From assembly GCA_030390025.1 (NCBI GenBank), contig JASTWF010000332.1, positions 310,001 to 374,000 of the forward strand: 64,000 bases of DNA. Direction: 5' to 3'. Shown here piece by piece: positions 1,083 through 56,586 of this stretch (the first letter of the stretch is position 1; each line of letters opens with the position of its first letter). This stretch comes from Squalus acanthias (Eukaryota). Below the pieces are notes generated by a model. That model saw nothing but the letters and a program-made list of their open reading frames with translations, had not been told where the DNA came from and did no database searches. The position numbers and the translations under genes are program-made.

Positions 1083-2094
1083 TGCTATTAACTCCCAGCA
1101 GGAAGAATGGAAAACGTGGGAGATGAAGCATCACATTACAGCCACTAGGGTGTTTTTAAAAAAAAACACACAACAGGCTCTACCCATGGAAGACAAAGGA
1201 CAAAACAGAAGGGTCAAGGACAAACACCTTCCATTGCAATAAACTGTCTGGAGCAAACACAGTCGGTACGCCAGGGACAACAACAGAATAGAGAGAGGTT
1301 TTAGTTTGCCCAAGAGAGGCTTACAAACAGATAAGAGATGCAGTGCCTAGGTGAGGGGCAGGGGAGGAAGCAAGGCTGAACTCAAGCAAAAGAACAACCG
1401 GTGAACTGCCCACTCGTTCTACCAGGAAATCCTGCCCTAATGCTAAAGCAGCAAGCACCACAGTTTTAATGTAACGTCCAACTTAAAAAAGGAACAACTG
1501 GTCTGAGCACTCGATTCAAGCATTGGCATCTCGGTCACTTAATACTTTCTCACGATTTTTTGTTGTTGCTGATTTGGAATTGTAAAAATTCCCATCGTCT
1601 TTCACTTGGTAAATCATTGTTGAATTTATGCTTCAAGTGCAGCCAGTTACAGTTCAGTACGTGCTGCAATAAATAATTGGGACACACTGAAAAATTATAA
1701 GCATCTCTCACTGGCAGCGTAAACCTCAGGCTGGAATTTATGCTGTATTTGTACAGCACTCCCACACTCAGACCAAACCGCACACTATACTTGCTCAATT
1801 TTTATTCTGCTTTTCTGGTATAATTTTCCCGACATGACAGCGGACATAGCAAGAAACAGAAAAACAAGAGTGGGAACAGTTTACATACTTTGGCTCCTGT
1901 GTCGTCACCAGAGTGGGGAGAAGAATTTTTAATTCTAAGCTCAATATTTCTAACTGTTCACTGTGCTTCTCTCAATCTTCGTTTCTCCTTGCTGCCAATT
2001 GTTTTCTTTCGGACGTACTTTCTCTGCTACCTCAGTTGCATTAAAGTGAGAAGTCGCACAACACCAGGTTATAGTCCAACAGTTTTATTTGAAA

Positions 2095-2132
2095 TCACAA
2101 GCTTTCGGAGCGGCTGCTCCTTCGTCAGGTGA
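2095..2132 (-). ncRNA. Minimal type-I hammerhead ribozyme motif (intact stem I)
   Basis: Minus strand reads UCAC-CUGACGA-A-GGAGC(agcc)GCUCC-GAA-AGCU-U-GUGA: conserved core, 5-bp stem II, palindromic stem III, stem I UCAC/GUGA. Confidence 0.8.
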
Positions 2133-2154
2133 AGTGAAGAGGTATTTCTTCACT

Positions 2155-2192
2155 TCACCTGACGAAGGAGCAGCCGCTCCGAAAGCTTGCGA
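2155..2192 (+). ncRNA. Minimal type-I hammerhead ribozyme motif (one stem I mismatch)
   Basis: tcac CTGACGA a ggagc agcc gctcc GAA agct t gcga. Confidence 0.7.
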
Positions 2193-2582
2193 TTTCAAAT
2201 AAAACTGTTGGACTATAACCTGGTGTTGTGCGACTTCTCACTTTTGTCCACCCCAGTCCAACACCGGCATCTCCGCATCAGTTGCATTACTGGTTGGTCT
2301 TTCTTCCTGTTAAACTGCTGCAGCGTGCAGATGCCTGTAACTCCCCATCTCCGGACAAGTGTCTGACTCCCATTCTGGCCAGCCTCTAACCCCACTCCTT
2401 CCACGGCATTGCGAGAAGAAAGCAGTGAAAGCTGATATTGCATTACGCTCCATCAGCAATATCAGCCGTTTTCATTTGCTAACCAAATTTCTGCAAGATG
2501 CGTCTCATTAAATTGCTAACTAGGTCAGTAGGTCCCACTGCTTCCTGAGCTTTGGAGGCTTATTCAAACAGATTATATATTG

Positions 2583-2870: not shown

Positions 2871-2971
2871 ACCTAGATATACTGGATCCTTTTCAAATGT
2901 GCAGCGTTGAGTGTGCGAGACCCCAGTGACAAATGAGAAAAGTCCAGTCTTCATTTAAATATAGTTATACA

Positions 2972-3450
2972 GGCCTTAGAGAGGGTGCAGAGGAGATTTA
3001 CTAGAATGGTACTAGGGATACGGGACTTCAGTTACGTTGAGACGAGAGAAGCTGGGGTTGTTCACCTTAGAGCAGAGAAGGTTAAGGGGAGATTTAATAT
3101 CAGCGTTTAAAATCGTGAAGCGCTTTGATAGAGTAAATAAGGAGAAATTGTTTCCACTGGCAGAAGGGTCAGTAACAAGACACAGATAAGACAATTGGCA
3201 AAAAGAAGCAGAGGGGAGATGTGCAGAATTTTTACACGCAGCGAGTTATGATGATTTGGAATGCATTGCCTAAGAGAATAGTGGAAGCAGGATAAATAAC
3301 TTTCAAAAGGGAATTGGATAAATACTTGAAGGGGTTCAATTTACATGGCTATGGGGAAAGAGCAGGGGAGTGGGACTAACTGGATTGCTCTTCGAAAGAG
3401 CCGGCACAGGCACGATGGGCCGAATGGCCTCCTTCTGTGCTGTATTCCTT
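2972..3450 (+). mobile_element. 5'-truncated CR1 LINE 3' end
   Basis: gccttagagagggtgcagaggagatttactagaatg through the terminal gggccgaatggcctccttctgtgctg. Confidence 0.9.
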
Positions 3451-8583: not shown

Positions 8584-11201
8584 GGGTACAAATGTATCTT
8601 GGCGGTATTGCATAGTTCGGCCAATATTCAGCTACATGAAAGTCAACAGAACTGAATATTGGGCGGGGCATATAACATAGAAACATAGAAGATAGGAGCA
8701 GGAGTAGGCCTTTCGGCCCCTCGAGCCTGCTCCACCATTTAATGAGATCATGGCTGATCATCCAAATTCAGTACCCTGTCCCTGCTTTCTCCCCATATCC
8801 CTTGATCCCTTTAGCCTTAAAATATATCTAACGCCTTCTTGAATATATTTAATGAATTGGCCTCATCTGCCTTCTGTGGTAGAGAATTCCACAGGTTCAC
8901 CACTCTCTGGGTGAAGAAATTCCTCCTTATCTCAGTCCTAAATGGCTTACCCCTTATCCTTCGACTGTGACCCCGGTTTCTGGACTCCCCCGCCATCGGG
9001 AACATCCTTCCTGCATCTAGTCTGTCTAGTCCTGTTAGAATTTTATAAGTTTCAATGAGATCCCCTCTCATTCTTCTAAACTCTAGCGAATATAATCCCA
9101 TTCGACCCAATCTCTCTTCATACGTCAATCCTGCCATCCCAGGTATCAGTCTGGTGAATCTTCGCTGCACTCCCTCCATGGCAAGAACATCCTTCCTCAG
9201 ATAAGGCGACCAAAACTGCACACAATACTCGAGGTGTGGTCTCACCAAGGCCCTGTACAACTGCAGCAAGACATCCTTGCTCCTGTACTCGAATCCTCTC
9301 GCTATGAAGGCCAACATACCATTTGCCTTCTTAACCACCTGCTACACCTGCACGCTTACCTTCAGCGACTGGTGCACAAGGACACCCAGGTCTCGTTGCA
9401 CTTCCTCTTTTCCCAATCTATTGCCGTTCAGATAATAATCCGCCTTCCTGTTTTTGCCACCAAAGTGGATAACCTCGTATTTATCCACATTATACTGCAT
9501 CTGCCCAAATCATACTGGAGTTTCTCTGCATCCTCCTCACAGCACACATGCCCACCCAGCTTTGTGTCATCTGCAAACTTGGAGATATTACATCTAGTTC
9601 CCTTGTCTAGATCATTAATATATATTTTGTGAATAGCTGGGGTCCTAGCACCGATCCCTGCGGTACCCCACTAGTCACTGCCTGCCACTCGGAAAAAGAC
9701 CCATTTATTCCAACTCTTTGCTTCCTGTCTGCCAACCAGTTCTCTATCCAAGTCAGTACCTTACCCCCAATCCCATGTGCTTTAACTTTGCATGCTAATC
9801 TCTTATGCGGGACCTTATCAAAATCCTTCTGAAAGTCCAAATACACCACATCCACTGGTTCTCCCTTATCTATTCTACCAGTTACATCCTCAAAAAATTC
9901 CAGTGGATTAGTCAAGCATGATTTACCTTTTGTAAATCCATGTTGACTTTGTCTGATCCCGTCACTGTTTTCCAAGTGCTCTGCTATTACATCTTTTATA
10001 ATGGACTCTAGCATTTTCCCCACTACCGATGTCAGGCTTACCGGTCTATAATTCCCCGTTTTCTCTCTCCCACCTTTTTTAAATAGTGGGGTTACATTAG
10101 CTACCCTCCAGTCCATGGGAACTGTTCCAGAGTCTATAGAATTTGGGAAGATGACCAGCAATGCATCTACTATTTCTAGGGCCTCTTCCTCAAGTACCCT
10201 AGGATGTAGATCATCAGGCCCTGGGGATTTATCGGCCTTCAATCCCGTCAATTTCCCCAACACCATTTCCCTACAAATACTGATTTCATTCAGTTCCTCC
10301 CTCTCATTAAACCCCATGTTCCCTGACATCTCTGGGAGGTTATTTGTGTCCTCCTTTGTGAAGACAGAACCAAAGTATGTATTTAATTGGTCTGCCATTT
10401 TTTTGTTCCCCATTATAAATTCCCCTGATTCTGACTGCAAGGGACCTATGCTTGACTTCACCAATCTTTTTCTCTTCACATATCTATAGAAGCTTTTACA
10501 GTCAGTTTTTATGTTCCCTGCAAGCTTACTCTGTTAATCTATTTTCCCCCTCTTAATTAATCCCTTTGTCCTCCTTTGCTGAATCCTAAACTGCTCCCAA
10601 TCCTCAATTTGCTACTTTTTCTGGCCAAACTATATGTCCTCTCCTTGGATCTTATGCTATCCCTAATTTCCCTTGTTAGCCACGGTTGGGTCACCTTTTT
10701 TGTTTTATTTTTATGCCAAACAGGGATGAACAAATTCTGTAGTTCATCCATGCGATCTTTAAATGTTTGCCATTGCCTATCCACCGTCAACCCTTTAAGT
10801 AACGTTCCCCAATCCATCCTAGCCAACTCGCGCCTCATACCATCGTAGTTTCCTTTATCTAAATTCAGGACCCTAGTCTGAGTCAACTACTTCACTCTCC
10901 ATCTTAAATGAAGAATTCTATCATATTATGATCGCTCCTCCCCAAGGGGCCTCGCACAACAAGATTGCTAATTAATCCTTTCTCATTACATAATACCCAG
11001 TCTAAGATGGCCTGATCTCTAGTTGGTTCCTCGACATATTGGTCCAGGAAACTATCCCATATACACTCTAGGAATTCCTCCTCCACAGCATTGTTACTAA
11101 TTTGGTTAGCCCAATCTATATGTAGATTAAAGTCACCCACGATAACTGCTGTGCCCTTAACGGGTGGCCGATGAGATACCACCCAAGATGCATTTCTACT
11201 C
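8584..11201. mobile_element. Hairpin MITE (same family as 11764-11948) split into 8584-8676 and 11158-11201 by a CR1
   Basis: Terminal inverted repeats gggtacaaatgtatcttgg / ccaagatgcatttctactc; shared internal motifs atattcag..gaactga and gccgat..gatacc. Confidence 0.7.
8677..11157 (-). mobile_element. CR1 LINE, ~2.5 kb, 5'-truncated in the endonuclease domain; ORF2 frameshifted
   Basis: ORFs 10904..11182 (VIVGDFN, SDHNMIEF), 9607..10479 (NYRPVSLTS, LDFQKDFDKV, GVPQGSVLGP), 8817..9338; catagaaacatagaa tail; candidate TSD taac at 8673-8676 and 11158-11161. Confidence 0.97.
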
Positions 11202-19996: not shown

Positions 19997-22415
19997 AACT
20001 CTCGGGATGTGGGCGTCGCTGGCAAAGCCGGCATTTACTGCCCATCCCAAGTTGCCCTGAGAAAATGGCGTTGGGCCGGCTTCTCAAAACACTGGTAGTA
20101 TTTTGATGCAACAAAGTGGCTTGCTTGGCCACTTCAGAAAGCAGTTCAGAGTCAACCACATTGGTGTGGGACTGGAGTCACATAAAGGCCAGACCGGGTA
20201 AGGGCACCAGGTTTCCTTCTCTGAAAGGGCATTAGTGAACCAGTTGGGTTATGTGGCCACTTTTTACTGATTTTAAATTCCTCAAACATAGAAACATAGA
20301 AGATAGGAGCAGGAGTAGGCCATTCGGCCCCTCGAGTCTGTTCTGCCATTTAATGAGATCACGGCTGATCATCCAAATTCAGTACCCTGTCCCTGCTTTC
20401 TCCCCATATCCCTTTAGCCTTAAGAAATATATCTAACTCCTTCTTGAATATATTTAATGAATTGGCCTCAACTGCCTTCTGTGGTAGAGAATTCCACAGG
20501 TTCACCACTCTCTGGGTGAAGAAATTCCTCCTCATCTCAGTCCTAAATGGCTTACCCCTTATCCTTAGACTGTGACCCCTGATTCTGGACTCCCCCGCCA
20601 TCGGGAACATCCTTCCTGCATCTAGTCTGTCTAGTCCTGTTAGAATTTTATAAGTTTCAATGAGATCCCCTCTCATTCTTCTAAACTCTAGCGAATATAA
20701 GCCTAATCGACCTAATCTCTCTTCATACGTCATTCCTGCCATCCCAGGTATCAGTCTGGTGAATCTTCGCTGCACTCCCTCCATGGCAAGAACATCCTTC
20801 CTCAGATAAGGTGACCAAAACTGCACACAATACTCGAGATGTGGTCTCACCAAGGCCCTGTACAATGGCAGCAAGACATCCTTGCTCCTGTACTCGAATC
20901 CTCTCGCTATGAAGGCCAACATACCATTTGCCGCCTTAACCACCTGCTGCACCTGCATGCTTACCTTCAGCGACTGGTGCACAAGGACACCCAGGTCTCG
21001 TTGCACTTCCCCTTTTCCCAATCTATTGCCGTTCAGATAATAATCTGTCTTCCTGTTTTTGCCACTGAAGTGGATAACCTCGCATTTATCCACATTATAC
21101 TGCATTTGCCATGCATCTGCCCAATCACCCAACCTGTCCAAATCATACTGGAGTTTCTCTGCATCCTCCACCCAGCTTTGTCTCATCTGTAAACTTGGAG
21201 ATATTACATCTAGTTCCCTCGTCTAGATCATTAATATATTGTGAATAGCTGGGGTCCTAGCACCGATCCCTGCGGTACCCCACTAGTCACTGCCTGCCAC
21301 TCGCAAAAAGACCCGTTTATTCCAACTCTTTGCTTCCTGTCTGCCAACCAGTTCTCTATCCAAGACAGTACCTTATCCCTAATCCCATGTGCTTTATCTT
21401 TGCACGCTAATCTCTTATGCGGGACCTTATCGAAAGCCTTCTGAAAGTCCAAATATACCACATCCACTGGTTCTCCCTTATCTATTCTACGAGTTACATC
21501 CTCAAAAAATTCCAGTAGATTAGTCAAGCATGATTTGCCTTTTGTAAATCCATGTTGACTTTGTCCGATCCTGTCACTGTTTTCCAAGTGCTCTGCTATT
21601 ACATCTTTTATAATGGACTCTAGCATTTTCCCCACTACCGATGTCAGGCTTACCGGTCTATAATGCCCCGTTTTCTCGCTACCACCTTTTTTAAATAGTG
21701 GGGTTACATTAGCTGTCCTCCAATCCATGGGAACTGTTCCAGAGTCTATAGAATTTTGGAAGATGACCAGCAATGCATCTACTATTTCTAGGGCCACTTC
21801 CTTAAGTACCCTAGGATGTAGCTTATCAGGCCCTGGGGATTTATCGGCCTTCAATCCCATCAATTTCCCCCAACACCATTTCCCTACAAATACTGATTTC
21901 ATTCAATTCCTCCCTCTCATTAGACCCTATGTTCCCCGACATCTCTGGGAGGTTATTTGTGTCCTCCTTTGTGAAGATAGAACCAAAGTATGTATTTAAT
22001 TGGTCTGCCATTTCTTTGTTCCCCATTATAAATTCCCCCGATTCTGACTGCAAGGGACCTATGCTTGACTTCACCAATCTTTTTCTCTTCACATATCTAT
22101 AGAAGCTTTTACAGTCAGTCAGTTTTTATGTTCCCTGCAAGCTTACTCTCATACTCTATTTTCCCCCTCTTAATTAATCCTTTTGTCCTCCTTTGCTGAA
22201 TCCTAAACCGCTCCCAATCCTCAGGTTTGCTGCTTTTTCTGGCCAATTTATATGTCCTCGCCTTGGATCTTATGCTATCCCTAATTTCCCTTGTTAGCCA
22301 CGGTTGAGTCACCTTTTTTGTTTTATTTTTATCACAATGGGATTTGAACTCAGTCTCTGGATTATTATTCCAGCCCTCTGGAATACTCGTCTGGCAACAT
22401 AACCACTGTGCTACC
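19997..22415 (-). mobile_element. tRNA-derived SINE (family of 2583-2870) split into ~19997-20285 and ~22335-22415 by a CR1
   Basis: Tail gggatgtgggcgtcgctggc on the left; head gggatttgaactc...aacataaccactgtgctacc on the right of the LINE. Confidence 0.75.
20286..22334 (-). mobile_element. CR1 LINE ~2.05 kb, same subfamily as 8677-11157
   Basis: ORFs 20359..21186, 21231..21902, 21841..22092, 22115..22312 are RT-domain fragments; near-identical to the 8677 copy by eye. Confidence 0.97.
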
Positions 22416-33779: not shown

Positions 33780-35170
33780 ACATCCTGGGATTTTGTACAT
33801 CCACCTTCATAGGCAGGCAGAGCCATAGTTTACTGTCTTACCTGAAAATCAACAGCTCCAACAATGCAACACTCTCAATACAGCACTGAAGTGTTCATAG
33901 AACCATAGAAGATAGGAGCAGGTGTAGGCCATTCGGCCCCTCTAGCCTGCTCCGCCATTCAATGCGATCATGGCTGATCATCCAAATTCAGTACCCTGTC
34001 CCTGCTTTCTCCCCATATCCCTTGATCCCTTTAGCCTTAAGAAATATATCCAACTCCTTCTTGAATCTATTAATGAATTGGCCTCTACTGCCTTCTGCGG
34101 CAGAGAATTCCACAGGTTCACCACTCTCTGGGTGAAGAAATTCTTCCTCATTTCTGTCCTAAATGGCTTACCCCTTATCCTTAGACTGTGACCCCTGGTT
34201 CTGGACTCCCCGACCATCGGGAACATCCTTCCTGCATCTAGTTTGTCCTGTCCTGTCAGAATTTTATAAGTTTCAATGAGATCCCCTCTCATTCTTCTAA
34301 ACTCTAGCGAGTATAAGCCCAATCGACCCAATCTCTCTTCATACGTCATTCCTGCCATCCCAGGTATCAGCCTTGTGAATCTTCGCTGAACTCCTTCCAT
34401 GGCAAGAACATCCTTCCTCAGATAAGGCGACCAAAACTGCACACAGTACTCAAGGTGTGGTCTCACCAAGGCCCTGTACAACTGCAGCAAGACATCTTTG
34501 TTCCTGTACTCAAACCCTCTCGCTATGAAGGCCAACATACCATTTGCCTTCTTAACCGCCTGCTGCACCTGCATGCTTACCTTCAGCGACTGGTGCACAA
34601 GGACACCCAGGTCTCGTTGCACTTCCCCTTCTCCCAATCTATTGCCATTCAGATAATAATCTGCCTTTCTGTTTGACACCAAAGTGGATAACCTCGCATT
34701 TATCCACGTTATATTGCATCTGCCACGCTTCTGCCCAATCACCCAACCTGTCCAAATCATCCTGGAGTTTCTCGGCATCCTCCTCGCAGCACACACGCCC
34801 ACCCAGTTTTGTGTCGTCTGCAAACTTGGAGATATTACATCTAGTTCCCTTGTCTAGATCATTAATATATATTGTGAACAGCTGGGGTCCAAGGACCGAT
34901 CCCTGCGGTACCCCACTAGTCACTGCCTGCCACTCGGAAAAAGACACGTTTATTGCAACTCTTTGCTTTCTGTCTGCCAACCAGTTCTCTATCCAAGTCA
35001 ATACCTTACCCCCAATCCCATGTGCCTTAACTTTACACGCTAATCTCTTATGCAGGACCTTATCAAAAGCCTTTTGGAAGTCCAAATACACCAGATTATG
35101 TGCTCAAATGATAGTCAAGTTTGACCCCACAGCCTTATGACTCAGAGGCAAGTGTCCTACCAAATGAGAC
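33780..35170 (-). mobile_element. Degenerate Deu-SINE split (33780-33895 and 35093-35170) by a CR1
   Basis: caatgcaacactctcaatacagcactgaagtgt on the left; tgactcagaggcaagtgtcctacc head on the right. Confidence 0.6.
33896..35092 (-). mobile_element. CR1 LINE ~1.2 kb, third copy of the 8677/20286 subfamily
   Basis: ORFs 34639..35091 (YLDFQKAFDKV, KFADDTKL) and 33978..34823. Confidence 0.97.
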
Positions 35171-43953: not shown

Positions 43954-44799
43954 CTAGTTTAAAGCCTTTGCCACCTCCCTATTTACCCTTTCCGCTAGGA
44001 GACGGGTCCAATCCCAGTTCAGGTGGAGCCCGTCCCATCGGTACAACTCCTTCCTGTCCTGTCCCATGAAAAGGAAACCCTCTTTCCCACACCAGCCCTT
44101 TAGCCATGTGTTAATTCTCCTGATCTGACTGCTTCTATGCCAATTTGCACGTGGCTTGGGCAATAATCCAGATATTATTACCCTTGAGGCCCTGCTTTTT
44201 AATTTAATTCTTAACTCCTGATACTCTTTCAGCAGGACCTCCTCCCTGTTCCTACCTATGTCATTTGTTCCAACATGGACCATGACAACTGGATTTACCC
44301 CCTCCCTTTCCAAGTTCCTCTCCAGCTGCCATGAGATATCCCTTACCCTGGCACTATGTAGGCAACACACACGTCGGGATTCTCATTCTTGGCTGCAGAG
44401 GACGCTATCTATCCCCCTAATTATAGAGTCCCCTATCACTACCACATTTCTATTCTGCTCCCTCCCCCTGCATCGTACCTGTTGGACAGGACCAGTGTCT
44501 GCGGGACCTCCTTCTCAACCTCTCCTAAATCCCTGCTACCCGGCTCCCCAACAGTCACACCCTCCCTTTCCTAAACCTGTGCTTTCCTCTGGGGTGTGAC
44601 TGTATTCTGGATATAACTGTCCAGAAATTCCACCCCCTCCCTCATGTGTCGGAGTGTCTCCAACTCATACTCCAGCTCAATGACTGAGCCGGAGAGATTC
44701 AAGATGGAGACAGCTCCTGCAGACGTGTTCGCTCAGGACAGTCTCGCTGTCCACAAACCCCCACATACTGCAGTCCAGACACACAACCTGCCCTGCCAT
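43954..44799 (-). pseudogene. CR1 ORF1: N-terminal CxxC-x16-CxxC zinc finger plus SGNH/GDSL esterase domain (frameshift and stop)
   Basis: ATG at 44799 gives MAGQVVCLDCSMWGFVDSETVLSEHVCRSC; downstream VVIGDSIIRG, VHVGTNDIG, WDGLHLN. Confidence 0.9.
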
Positions 44800-47805: not shown

Positions 47806-49530
47806 TCATAGAAACAGAGAAAAATAGGAGCAGGAGTAGGCCATTCGGCCCTTCGAGCCTGCTCCGCCATTCAATAGGCTGATCCTCTATCTCAATACCA
47901 TATTCCCGCTCTCTCCCCATACCCCTTGATGCCTTTTGTGTCTAGAAATCTATCTATCTCCTTCTTAAATATATTCAGTGACTTGGCCTCCACAGTCTTC
48001 TGTGGTAGAGAATTCCACAGGTTCACCACCCTCTTGAATGAAGAAATGTCTCCTCGTCTCAGTCCTAAATGTCCTACCCCGTATCCTGAGACTGTGACCC
48101 CTCGTTCTAGAGCCCCCCAGCCAGGGGAAACATCCTTTCTGCATCCAGTCTGTCTAGCCCTGTCAGAATTTTACACGTTTCAATGAGATCCCCTCTCATT
48201 CTTCTAAACTCTAGTGAATACAGGCCTAGTTGACCCAATCTCTCCTCATATGACAGTCCTGCCATCCCAGGAATCAGTTTGGTGAACCTTCAGTACACTC
48301 CCTCTATGGCAAGTATATCCTTTTAGGTAAGGAGACCAAAACTGCACACAATACTCCAGGTGTGGTCTCACCAAGGCCCTGTATAACTGTAGTAAGACAT
48401 CCTTGCTCCTGTACTCAAATCCTCTTGCAATGAAGGCCAACATACCATTTGCCTTCCTAACTGCACCTGCATGTTTGCTTTCAGTGACTGGTGTACAAGG
48501 ACACCCAGGTCCCTTTGTACAATCAACATTTCCCAATCTATCACCGTTTAAATAATACTCTGCCTTTCTGTTTTTCCTACCGAAGTGGATAACTTCACAT
48601 TTATCCACGCTATACTGCATCTGCCATGTATTTGCCCACTCACTCAACTTGTCTAAATCGCCTTGAAGCCTCTTTGCATCCTCCTCACAACTCACAATCC
48701 CACCTAGTTTTGTGTCGTCAGCAAACTTGGAAATATTACATTTGGTTCCCTCATCCAAATCATTGATATATATTGTGAATAGCTGGGGCCCAAGCACTGA
48801 TCCCTGTGGTAACCCACTAGTCACCGCCTGCCACCCAGAAAAAGACCCGTTTATTCCTACTCTGTTTCCTGTCTGTTAACCAATTTTCAATCCATGCCAG
48901 TATATTACCCCCAATCCCATGTGCTTTAATTTTGCACACTAACCTCTTATGTGGGACTTTATCAAAGGCCTTCTGAAAATTCAAATACACCACATCCACT
49001 GGCTCTCCCTTATCTATTCTACCAGTTACATCCTCAAAAAACTCCAGTAGGTTTGTAAAACACGATTTCCCTTTCATAAATCCATGTTGACTTTGTCGAA
49101 TCCCGTTGGTATTTTCTGAGTGTCCAGTTGTCACATCCTTTATAATAGACTCTAGCATTTTCCCTACTACTGATGTTAGGCTCTCCCTCCTTTTTTAAAT
49201 AGTGGGGTTACATTTGCCACCCTCCAAACTGCAGGAACTGTTCAATTATCTATGGAATTTTGGACACCAATGCATCCTTTTAATACTCTGGGATGCGGAT
49301 TATCAGGCCCTGGGGATTTATCGGCTTTCAGTCCCATTAATTTCTCCAGCACTATTTTTTTTTACTAATACTAATTTCCTTTAAGTCTCCTTCTCACTAG
49401 ACACTTGGTTCCCTAGCATTTCTGGGAAGTTATTTGTGTCCTCTTCCGTGAAGACAGAACCAAAGTATTTGTTTAATTGCTCTGCCATTTCCTTGTTCCC
49501 CATTATAAATTCTCCCATTTCTGACTGTAA
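47806..49530 (-). mobile_element. CR1 LINE ~1.7 kb, decayed
   Basis: ORFs 48246..48824 (GLPQGSVLGP, KFADDTKL) and 48817..49158. Confidence 0.96.
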
Positions 49531-53072: not shown

Positions 53073-54081
53073 TAAATGGAAATTCTTTCTTTGCTAAAAC
53101 ATCTCCGTTACATACAAATCTGCTACAATATTTTGGTTGGTTGCTACTGTGGAAGAAAGACAAACAAAAAAGATTTGACCTCCATCGTGAGCAAAGATAC
53201 GTTTTCACACTACACTGAATAAGAGAGGAACTTCTTACAGTAACAAATGTGATGGCAAATGCCTTGGCAGTCATGTAACATACTGGAAATAACTTTCCAT
53301 CAGCTCTGCTTATCTTAGCTGGATACCAAACCTGAAACCCTGGATGACCCTCTCAACTTTCAGCTGGTCACGCCTTTCCTTTACATGTTATAGCTGCAAA
53401 ACTGGATTTTCGACAACTTCCTAATGTTGAGGATGGCATTACAAAAGCAGAATTGTGCAAGCATAAAAATCCATTGGTCATAATTCACTATTTTTTTTTT
53501 AAATAGACCAGCACAAAAATGTTGTTATTTTTGACAACCGCGCACTGTCCTGGCCTCACTATCACAGAAAATTACTGCTACAAACAGTAGATTTAAAGTG
53601 CAGGCAAAAGTCTGTCACTGATGCCGCTGTTATACAGGGCCAGTGTTGTGCGATTAAGTTGCCACTAAACAAAGCTACTTCAGCTTGTGATCTCTGTTCG
53701 ATATACTCACACACTCCAGGTTCCCAACAAACTCAGGTCACTGCACACACAGTCACTAGTTTAAAAAAAAAACACACAATTTGGGTAAAATTCCTTTGTT
53801 TCTTTCCATAATTAAAGGACTAACTATCAAAAATTGTACTCCAAGCCACATATTGCTGCAATGTTGTTACTGGATCAATTGTTATGGAGAAAAACAGGCA
53901 TTCCATTTTTCGGTTAAATAAGAAAATACAGGCGGCAGTCAGTGTACGTACATGGGAGTTTCTTTTGTGGGCTTACAATTCTGCCATTGGGGTAAGAGAC
54001 CTTTCAATTTGGGGATAGCAAAATACTACGGATGCTGGAAAAACTCAGCAGGCCAGGCAGCATCCATGGAGAGAGAAACAA

Positions 54082-54118
54082 AGTTAACGTTTCAGGTCGA
54101 AGACCTTTCGTCAGAACT
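54082..54118 (-). ncRNA. Minimal type-I hammerhead ribozyme motif in the left PLE repeat
   Basis: Minus strand AGUU-CUGACGA-A-AGGUC(uuc)GACCU-GAA-ACGU-U-AACU. Confidence 0.8.
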
Positions 54119-54380
54119 GGAAAAAAGCAGCAAATGGAACAGATTTTAAAGTGAGGTTAGGGGCTGCGAAATGGGGGAGGGGATGAAAGAACAAAAGGGA
54201 AGGTCAGTGATAGGATGGAAGGCAGGAGAAGTAAAGAGGCATTAAGAGATATTCAAGGCAAGAGGAGGTGGTAATGGGACAGGTTGAGGAACAAAGGATG
54301 GCTCTAGATGAAGTGTGAATTGCGCTGGTAGAATGAAGGACAGCTGCCATGTGGGAGGGAAGAAAAAAGGCACAAACAAA

Positions 54381-55320
54381 AAGTTCCTCGACTTCTCCAT
54401 TTCTGGGGATAGGTTATTGACCAACATTCACTACAAGCCCACTGACTCCCACAGCTACCTGGACTACACTTCCTCCCACCCCGCCTCCTGTAAGGACTCT
54501 ATTCCATTCTCCCAGTTTCTCCGTCTCTGCCGCATCTGCTCCGACGATGCCACTTTCCATACCAGGGCTTCAGACAGGTCTTCCTTTTTCCTCAACCGAG
54601 GATTCCCCTCGACTGTGGTTGACACGGCCCTCGACCGTGTCCGTTCTATTTCCCACACGTCTGCCCTCACCCCTGACCCTCCCTCCCGGAACCACGAGAG
54701 TTACCCTTGTCCTCACCTTTCACCCCACCAGCCTCCACATTCAACGGATCATCCTCCGCCATTTCCACCACCTCCAGCGTGATCCCACCACCAAACGCAT
54801 CTTCCCCTCACCTCCCCTTTCAGCATTCCATAGGGACCGCTCCCTCCGCGACACCCTGGTCCACTCCTCTACCACCCCCAGCACCCCTTCCCCTTTGCCC
54901 GGCACCTTCCCGTGCAAGCGCAGGAGATGCAACACATGCCCTTATACCTCCCCCCTTCCCACTGTCCAGGGCCCCAAACACCCCTTCCAGGTGAAGCAGC
55001 GATTTACTTGTACTTCTTGCAATTTAGTATACTGTATTTGCTGCTCACGATGTGGTCTCCTCTACATTGGGGAGACCTAACACAGATTGGGTGACCGCTT
55101 TGCGGAACACCTCCGTTCAGTCCGTAAGGGGGACCCAGAGCTTCCGGTTGCCTGTCACTTTAATTCACCGCTCCATTCCCACTCAGACCTCACCGTCCTC
55201 GGCCTCTTGCATTGTTCCACAGAAGCTCAGCGTAAGCTCGAGGAACAGCACCTCATCTTTCGATTAGGCACTCTACAGCCCTCTGGACTCAACATAGAGT
55301 TCAACAATTTCAGATCATAA
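54381..55320 (+). pseudogene. PLE ORF remnant: RT C-terminus, Cys-rich linker and GIY-YIG endonuclease (frameshift and stop)
   Basis: FLD..YKPTDSHSYLDYTSSHP..SIPFSQFLRL; CKRRRCNTC; NLVYCICCSRCGLLYIGET*; RFAEH..HFN..EQHLIFRLGTLQPSGLN. Confidence 0.93.
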
Positions 55321-55621
55321 CCTCGGCCCCTATCACATATGTATATTTTTTATCCACACTTTGTTTGTTCCTTTTTTCTTCCCTCCCACATGGCAGCTGT
55401 CCTTCATTCTGCAAGCGCAATTCACACTTCATCTAGAGCCATCCTTTGTTCCTTAACTGTCCCATTACCATCTCCTCTTGCCTTGAATATCTCTTAATGC
55501 CTCTTTACTTCTCCTGCCTTCCATCCGATCTCTGACCTTCCCTTTTGTTCTTTCATCCCCTCCCCCATTTCCCAGCCCCTAACCTCACTTTAAAATCTGT
55601 TCCCTTTCCTGCTTTTTTTCC

Positions 55622-55658
55622 AGTTCTGACGAAAGGTCTTCGACCTGAAACGTTAACT
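55622..55658 (+). ncRNA. Minimal type-I hammerhead ribozyme motif in the right PLE repeat
   Basis: agtt CTGACGA a aggtc ttc gacct GAA acgt t aact. Confidence 0.82.
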
Positions 55659-55723
55659 CTGTTTCTCTCTCTCCACGGATGCTGCCTGGCCTGCTGAGTT
55701 TTTCCAGCGTTTTCTGTTATTTA

Positions 55724-56586
55724 AATTTGGGGAGTCAGTTCACGGACCGTGGCCTCCCAGGATTGGAATTAAAGAAGCGGTGTAAAAACCACCTTTAGTT
55801 ACAGGTGTGAATTTAGTCATCTGAACAGGGGTTGGTGGTGGTGGGGGGGGGGGGGGGGGGGGGGGCGCGGAGAAGAGAGAGAAATCTAGTCGAACTCCAG
55901 AGCCATTCATGCTGTGCTGGCTTCAAGTTATATCAGAGCCAATACACGATGAATATCTGCAGTCAGACCAATGAATCTGCCAAACTGATAAGTCAAACAG
56001 ACAAATACTTTCTGCACTTCCTTATGCTCAGACATCAATTTAAAAGCTGTACCCTTTGAAAATCAGTGCTAGCATCATACACTGACAGAATTCTATTGAA
56101 CATGTGTGTGTTCAAATGCAGCATCACAAAATACAGGAACAGCTGTATGGATTAAGGGGTTCAAACAGCAGAATCCAGAATATGAAAGAAGAAAGCATAC
56201 AGCACTGGATCGGTTATTAACAAGAGTCTTAACTACTAAATAATCTAGCCGTACACATTCGGCATCTCTATTTGTGTGAAGGCTGCAGTTAAACGATCGG
56301 ATCGGACACAGTCCATCTCCTCACATACCCAGCAAATACAATCAATGTTTGTGACAATGCCAAAAATCCTTTTCAGAGCAATGCAAGCATCACAAAGTCA
56401 GAACCTGATCAGTTAATTGATTTACATTGGTCTGGTCTGCCTGCAGATATTCATCTTGTAGGGGCACGGATATAACCCAACCCCAGCTCAGGCTAATTTA
56501 CACCTGTAATTGAAGGTTCTTTTACACTGGCGCATGTTTAATTTGGGGTCTGAGAGATCTGGGTCTGTAAACTGACTCCCAAAATT
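55724..56586. mobile_element. Old unclassified element with ~110-bp imperfect terminal inverted repeats
   Basis: 55724-55835 (aatttggggagtcagttcacggacc..gtgtaaaa..ttacaggtgtgaatttag..ggggttgg) is inverted at 56477-56586. Confidence 0.7.

Follow-up and report, generated by a model that had tools for sequence, protein, structure and literature searches.

A 234-bp palindromic insertion carrying two hammerhead motifs in Squalus acanthias, most likely a truncated Penelope-like element

Penelope-like elements (PLEs) typically insert as an inverted, 5'-truncated copy accompanied by a tail of 30 to 40 bp on one side only, as described in the accessible sections of two papers on EN+ PLEs (Craig et al. 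2021, PMC8557442; Arkhipova et al. 2013, PMC3846280). A tail of that length is described in PMC8557442 and also in work on the Poseidon PLE of Anolis carolinensis, PAc (Frangieh et al. 2024, PMC11167929). In the available parts of the latter study, the PLE protein introduces nicks into both strands of the target and extends them, reverse transcription starts at two sites that bound the tail, and the hammerhead, which required the PLE protein for cleavage, is dispensable for in vitro insertion. Minimal hammerheads are standard in the pLTRs of metazoan PLEs, including opposite-strand pairs lying 100 to 700 bp apart, most of which are regarded as truncated PLEs (Cervera and De la Pena 2014, PMC4209133, accessible sections). 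According to the same source, monomeric minimal hammerheads have no detectable cleavage and dimers have low activity; the claim on dimers is also found in the accessible part of a review (PMC6765202). In a rotifer, pLTR sequences alone sufficed for integration in trans (PMC3846280, available text).

Here, we describe a short insertion with these characteristics in a 64,000-nt stretch of S. acanthias DNA, hereafter the window. The insertion combines a head-to-head palindrome, a one-sided tail, an exact target-site duplication (TSD) and a hammerhead motif on each strand.

Layout of the insert and its hammerhead motifs

The insert (2044 to 2277, 234 bp) is framed by an exact 12-bp direct repeat, in agreement with the first-pass annotation of this DNA. 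Comparison of the two junctions revealed this repeat as the sole exact direct repeat of at least 7 nt, and a 12-mer repeat with the same geometry was found in 32 of 20,000 random position pairs within the window. The arms of the palindrome (2043 to 2140 and 2147 to 2244) measure 98 nt each, are separated by a 6-nt spacer and, as had been annotated, differ by a single mismatch (2097 A / 2190 C). The RNA fold of the palindrome has a predicted energy of -193.8 kcal/mol (z = -27.9), which was equalled by none of 200 shuffled sequences. The palindrome is imperfect in that the insert is asymmetric, with 33 nt lying outside the arms on the right side only (Table 1). This extension had gone unremarked before, as had the location of the arm mismatch within stem I of the plus-strand ribozyme. 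The absence of an ORF noted earlier was borne out: there is no ATG on the plus strand and one on the minus strand near the end (2270), and two of the six frames are open over most of the insert without sign of coding. The insert had also been regarded as young, and the exact TSD together with one mismatch in 98 positions suggests probable youth, with the proviso that palindrome arms can be homogenised. The 64-kb window holds no second copy of the insert.

Table 1. Features of the palindromic insertion (positions are those of the window)
Feature	Positions	Strand	Basis or remark
Left TSD, 12 bp	2032..2043	+	exact direct repeat
Inverted, 5'-truncated copy of the family 3' end (pLTR part), without tail	2044..2140	-	arm comparison
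Minimal type-I hammerhead	2095..2132	-	predicted cleavage between 2099 and 2098
Head-to-head junction	2141..2146	.	arm comparison and loose ends before 2142
Direct, 5'-truncated copy of the family 3' end, including the tail	2142..2277	+	arm comparison, contig loose ends
Minimal hammerhead with an A-C mismatch in stem I (2190)	2155..2192	+	predicted cleavage between 2188 and 2189
33-nt one-sided extension, the PLE tail	2245..2277	+	loose ends, tail length in the literature
Right TSD, 12 bp	2278..2289	+	exact direct repeat

Each arm carries one hammerhead motif, whose core starts at 2159 on the plus strand and at 2128 on the minus strand. The minimal hammerhead core is present (CUGANGA and GAAA-UH, with an extra base after A9 and a G10.1-C11.1 pair), and the minus-strand motif has a 4-bp stem I, a 5-bp stem II and a 4-nt palindromic stem III. 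Because the plus-strand ribozyme has the one arm mismatch in its stem I, an intact 4-bp stem I is found only in the minus-strand motif. Folded in isolation, the latter is predicted to form stem I with a probability of 0.94 and stem II with a probability of 1.00; the predicted stem I probability of the isolated plus-strand motif is 0.03. A minimal-hammerhead descriptor that allowed one stem I mismatch matched four sites in the window, the two described here and two in a second PLE-type element (see below), and matched no site in any of 30 shuffled windows. These results agree with the earlier annotation of one hammerhead core per arm and of a minimal motif with a palindromic stem III (AGCU), with cleavage predicted after the following U.

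The pairing was also compared across five motifs, which represent only two to three independent sequences and include one from a marine metagenome contig (L002, see below) that was chosen by a pattern including stem II: 54 of the 55 cells were paired, and 8 of the 11 pairs had two-sided changes. The one unpaired cell sits in the plus-strand motif. A model search, which the first-pass annotation had named as a check, returned no Rfam hammerhead match, either at gathering level, where the insert had no Rfam match at all, or at E values up to 10. At the latter level, eight miRNA hairpin models and one snoRNA model appeared, all below threshold. A miRNA reading of the insert was rejected because all scores were below threshold and any long hairpin yields such matches. 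An unconstrained two-molecule fold of the minus-strand motif gave a stem II-swapped duplex rather than a catalytic dimer and is uninformative.

Compared with the minimal hammerheads of metazoan pLTRs (PMC4209133, accessible sections), the motifs share the conserved core with its extra base between positions 9 and 10.1, the G10.1-C11.1 pair, the 4-bp helix I and the short palindromic helix III. They differ in helix II, which has 5 bp here and 7 to 8 bp in the Schistosoma families, and in the stem I mismatch of the plus-strand motif. Moreover, whereas the dual motifs described there lie 100 to 700 bp apart, the two cores of the insert share one near-perfect hairpin, with about 30 bp between them.

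The repeat family and its probable relation to Penelope-like elements

For a view of the repeat family, contigs from 4 of 24 listed public sequencing runs (X1, X5, X6 and X9) were mapped on positions 1700 to 2600. The insert clearly belongs to a hugely abundant repeat family: in two large DNA-type runs, the summed contig depth, which is not a copy number, was 0.3 to 4.9 million over the insert versus 12 to 21 in the unique flanks. Among the loose ends listed (24 of 386), contigs continue into unrelated flanks behind 2245 (60 in X1, 37 in X5) and behind 2280 (151 in X1, 126 in X5 and 19 in X6), with a flank agreement of 0.36 to 0.43. The family has, in other words, two 3' ends 35 nt apart, and both ends of the insert lie within 1 to 3 nt of them. 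The left end of the insert is the mirror of 2243/2244, so that the inverted copy stops 1 to 2 nt short of the short 3' end of the family (mirror of 2245), and the right end is 2277, or 2280 when the 3 nt common to the TSD are included. As the long 3' end of the family lies at about 2280, the match to the family extends into the first 3 nt of the right TSD.

On the other side, the loose ends listed before 2142 share one common consensus in 34, 18, 7 and 1 contigs of the four runs, with an agreement of 0.63 to 0.85 in the three runs that have several contigs. Hence the family extends upstream of what this copy retains: the direct copy, which matches the family from 2142 onward, has lost its 5' part at that point. 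The inverted copy ends 5 nt deeper, and a lone base (2141) lies between the two. The centre joints listed (15 of 127) leave the left arm at 2078 to 2135 and re-enter at 2148 to 2246, in a view that is biased because joints further upstream than 2142 are not displayable. Since the positions of the listed joints differ, the centre varies among copies. In 8 of the 15, re-entry occurs at 2148 to 2153, the edge of stem I. Joints from near 2112 to 2152/2153 reach depths of 694 and 487 in X1, versus 12 for the flank, indicating that some centre junctions are common to tens of copies. No empty-site allele was seen among the 15 of 127 joints listed, in which single-copy joints would rank low. In X5, of which about 55% was read, the left contig ends 2 nt into the insert and the right flank has almost no cover. 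The two 151-nt right-flank pieces of X9, at depth 3, resemble one read pair and were not counted as evidence for a cross-species orthologue.

Two side observations concern other copies of the family. The centre junction 2112-2117 / 2152-2153 occurs in several sequence variants, at depths of 100 to 700 in X1 and also in X5 and X6, and would represent either a recurrent hot spot or a palindromic subfamily copied as a unit. Behind 2280, the first six letters of the loose-end consensus agree in three runs and, read together with base 2280, yield an ATG. Judging from these letters, an ORF of the family may start right at the end of the tail.

Next, a search with the hammerhead pattern matched two marine metagenome contigs (L001 and L002) and had no match in viral and genome contigs; an exact 24-nt pattern had no match in metagenome and prokaryote genome contigs. 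Upstream of its hammerhead, L002 holds a 177-aa GIY-YIG-like frame (48 to 581) with a YIGET motif. This frame matches that of the second element in the window (E = 1e-9) and has two longer homologues, P0002 with an RVT_1 match (E = 5.6e-8) and P0001 with sub-threshold matches to GIY-YIG (E = 0.0086) and to RVT_1. In Pfam, GIY-YIG matched neither the L002 ORF nor the frame of the second element. Downstream of the search pattern, and with the tail included, L002 resembles the insert to a degree that was equalled by 7 of 2,000 shuffles. As a further observation, L002:1-1470 and L001:1-1050 carry almost identical fragments of an animal-type PLE relative, which shares its hammerhead core with the insert, and L001 has an apparent RT-like stretch on the minus strand beside the repeat. 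The tail-like stretch of L002 likewise ends in ATG, at the end of the contig.

The second, different PLE-type element of the window (54016 to 55723) has 350-bp inverted arms at 95% identity, each with a hammerhead whose stems are fully intact, and is flanked by a 10-bp TSD (54006-54015 / 55724-55733). A broken frame, resembling an RT end followed by GIY-YIG, lies between the arms, and the outer ends bear short extensions that differ from each other. This element serves as an in-window control, as its GIY-YIG remnant is enclosed in a layout like that of the insert.

Three traits of EN+ PLE insertions are found together at the palindrome: an inverted, 5'-truncated copy beside a direct copy of the terminal repeat, a one-sided tail of 33 nt between two preferred 3' ends (2245 and 2280), and an exact 12-bp TSD around the whole unit. 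As judged from this layout, the hammerhead motif and the distant relative L002, the insert is most likely linked to PLEs. The PLE origin proposed in the first-pass annotation is supported by layout, tail and hammerhead motif, and its retro-insertion with a TSD by the exact 12-bp repeat. Compared with the EN+ PLE units described in the accessible sections of PMC8557442 and PMC3846280, the insert shares the same head-to-head arrangement of an inverted, 5'-truncated copy and a direct copy, the one-ended tail (33 nt here, 31 bp in Pen2a_Av) and the TSD around the unit (12 bp here, 8 to 10 bp there). However, those units are longer, while the insert, with only 234 bp, is truncated too deeply for any ORF; stub-sized palindromes are not singled out in these sections. 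With PAc (PMC11167929, available parts), the insert shares the two preferred 3' ends that bound the tail, a hammerhead a short distance upstream of these ends and, presumably, the use of both target strands. The PAc ORF, by contrast, begins within the hammerhead; the insert lacks an ATG on the plus strand.

Origin of the palindrome and possible roles

Given the two 3' ends of the family, its continuation upstream of this copy and the varied centre joints, the insert is best read as two truncated copies placed head to head. We consider it most likely, with a probability of roughly 85%, that two short copies of the same end of an abundant repeat were joined in a dead, truncated PLE insertion, in which the hammerheads are passengers. 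In the proposed sequence of events, a GIY-YIG endonuclease, presumably that of the element, would make staggered nicks 12 nt apart, and the reverse transcriptase would copy the element RNA, probably by priming from both nicked strands. One cDNA would start at the long 3' end and so include the tail, and the other about 35 nt further upstream, at the short 3' end. Synthesis of both would end after about 100 to 135 nt, just past the hammerhead, and the two cDNAs would then be joined. Alternatively, fold-back self-priming of a single cDNA, as proposed in PMC3846280 (available text), would lead to the same product.

A broader proposal is that stub-sized fold-back PLE units make up a separate mobile class in this genome: the cDNA would stop preferentially at the 5' edge of the hammerhead, some palindromes would be re-copied as units and the hairpin would silence the ribozyme. 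We regard this as improbable, although it would, if true, tie the fold of the hammerhead, rather than its cleavage, to the truncation and inversion of PLEs.

A little less probable still is a non-autonomous mini-PLE, in which the 234-bp palindrome would itself be transcribed and then inserted again in one piece by a PLE protein acting in trans. Both of its ends are natural family ends within a clean TSD, some centre joints of other copies reach 40 to 55 times the flank depth, and the rotifer pLTR was enough by itself for integration in trans (PMC3846280). Against this, the joints listed (15 of 127) vary widely, the family continues upstream of the centre of this copy, the 64-kb window contains no second copy, and a perfect hairpin of 98 bp would probably be a poor template. 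The first-pass annotation had proposed a non-autonomous retro-insertion, for which other copies with this boundary would be expected. The family extends upstream of 2142 and the centre joints of other copies differ widely, although some of those joints are common to tens of copies. The evidence is closer to a truncated inversion, which the annotation itself had set against its proposal, than to such a family.

The insert had further been suggested to act as a co-transcriptional switch or as a dsRNA (ADAR/Dicer) substrate; in this reading it would be a switch between ribozyme and hairpin, or a selected dsRNA substrate, for a host transcript. The hairpin is indeed very stable, the isolated minus-strand motif is predicted to fold, and one run, guessed to be RNA but perhaps DNA, has a 251-nt contig at depth 3 that reaches 14 nt into the insert. 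Nevertheless, as the copies lie head to head, a complete antisense arm is transcribed before the sense ribozyme on either strand. For seven transcript lengths per strand, beginning with the one at which stem II is complete, the predicted stem II probability never exceeds 2e-15, and forcing stem II together with an unpaired core costs 53.9 kcal/mol relative to the hairpin on both strands; these folding figures are equilibrium predictions without proteins. The two motifs are on opposite strands and consequently cannot form a dimer in cis, stem I of the plus-strand motif is broken, and monomeric minimal hammerheads had no detectable cleavage in PMC4209133 (accessible sections). A Pfam scan of 44 of the 45 window ORFs of at least 110 aa, which short exons would escape, found no host gene (five RT matches, one GDSL-like, the rest blank), and the insert site bears no sign of selection. 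Both hammerheads are thus predicted to be locked in the long hairpin whichever strand is read, which makes a switch unlikely; for the proposal as a whole, a role in a host transcript, we see very little chance. If the site is transcribed, the 98-bp duplex could be available to editing or dicing enzymes, as with any inverted repeat. No RNA holder was on record for the 24 runs, a result that says nothing about expression.

Least probable of all is an assembly artefact or a fold-back rearrangement of a solo pLTR after insertion: tandem and inverted PLE structures trouble assemblies (PMC8557442, accessible sections) and no contig listed (32 of 30,518 pieces) spans the whole insert, but the unit as a whole is bounded by the exact 12-bp TSD and its left end falls on a natural family end. 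Contigs without differences that start in the left flank cover 23 nt (X1) and 14 nt (X6) of the inverted arm, and those in X9 connect 13 nt of the tail with the right flank, all of them below the 31-nt bar for bridging.

The palindromic insertion is real but ordinary, every component and their arrangement being already in print. In the literature, searched mostly outside subscription journals, no paper was found that deals specifically with palindromic PLE insertions of stub size or with PLE hammerheads of sharks. The single locus matters little, as one of very many truncated PLE-type insertions whose layout has been in the literature since 2013 or earlier. It is useful as a compact specimen, in which both preferred 3' ends face outward around a defined centre, so that a genome-wide catalogue of such stubs could test the inversion route. 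A catalogue of this kind could separate priming from both nicked strands from fold-back as the source of PLE inversions and could show whether truncation is positioned by the hammerhead.

Other repeats in the window

ORF fragments at 9610-10533, 21234-21902, 34642-35103, 48249-49194 and 43957-44382 gave five matches to RVT_1 and one to a GDSL-like esterase. These fragments are decayed LINE copies and account for most of the long inverted repeats in the window. The insert itself is flanked by an older pair of repeats in opposite orientation (9 to 321 and 2971 to 3277), which are about 300 bp long, 70 to 82% complementary and spaced 2.7 to 3.1 kb apart, and which are probably two independent copies of a common repeat.
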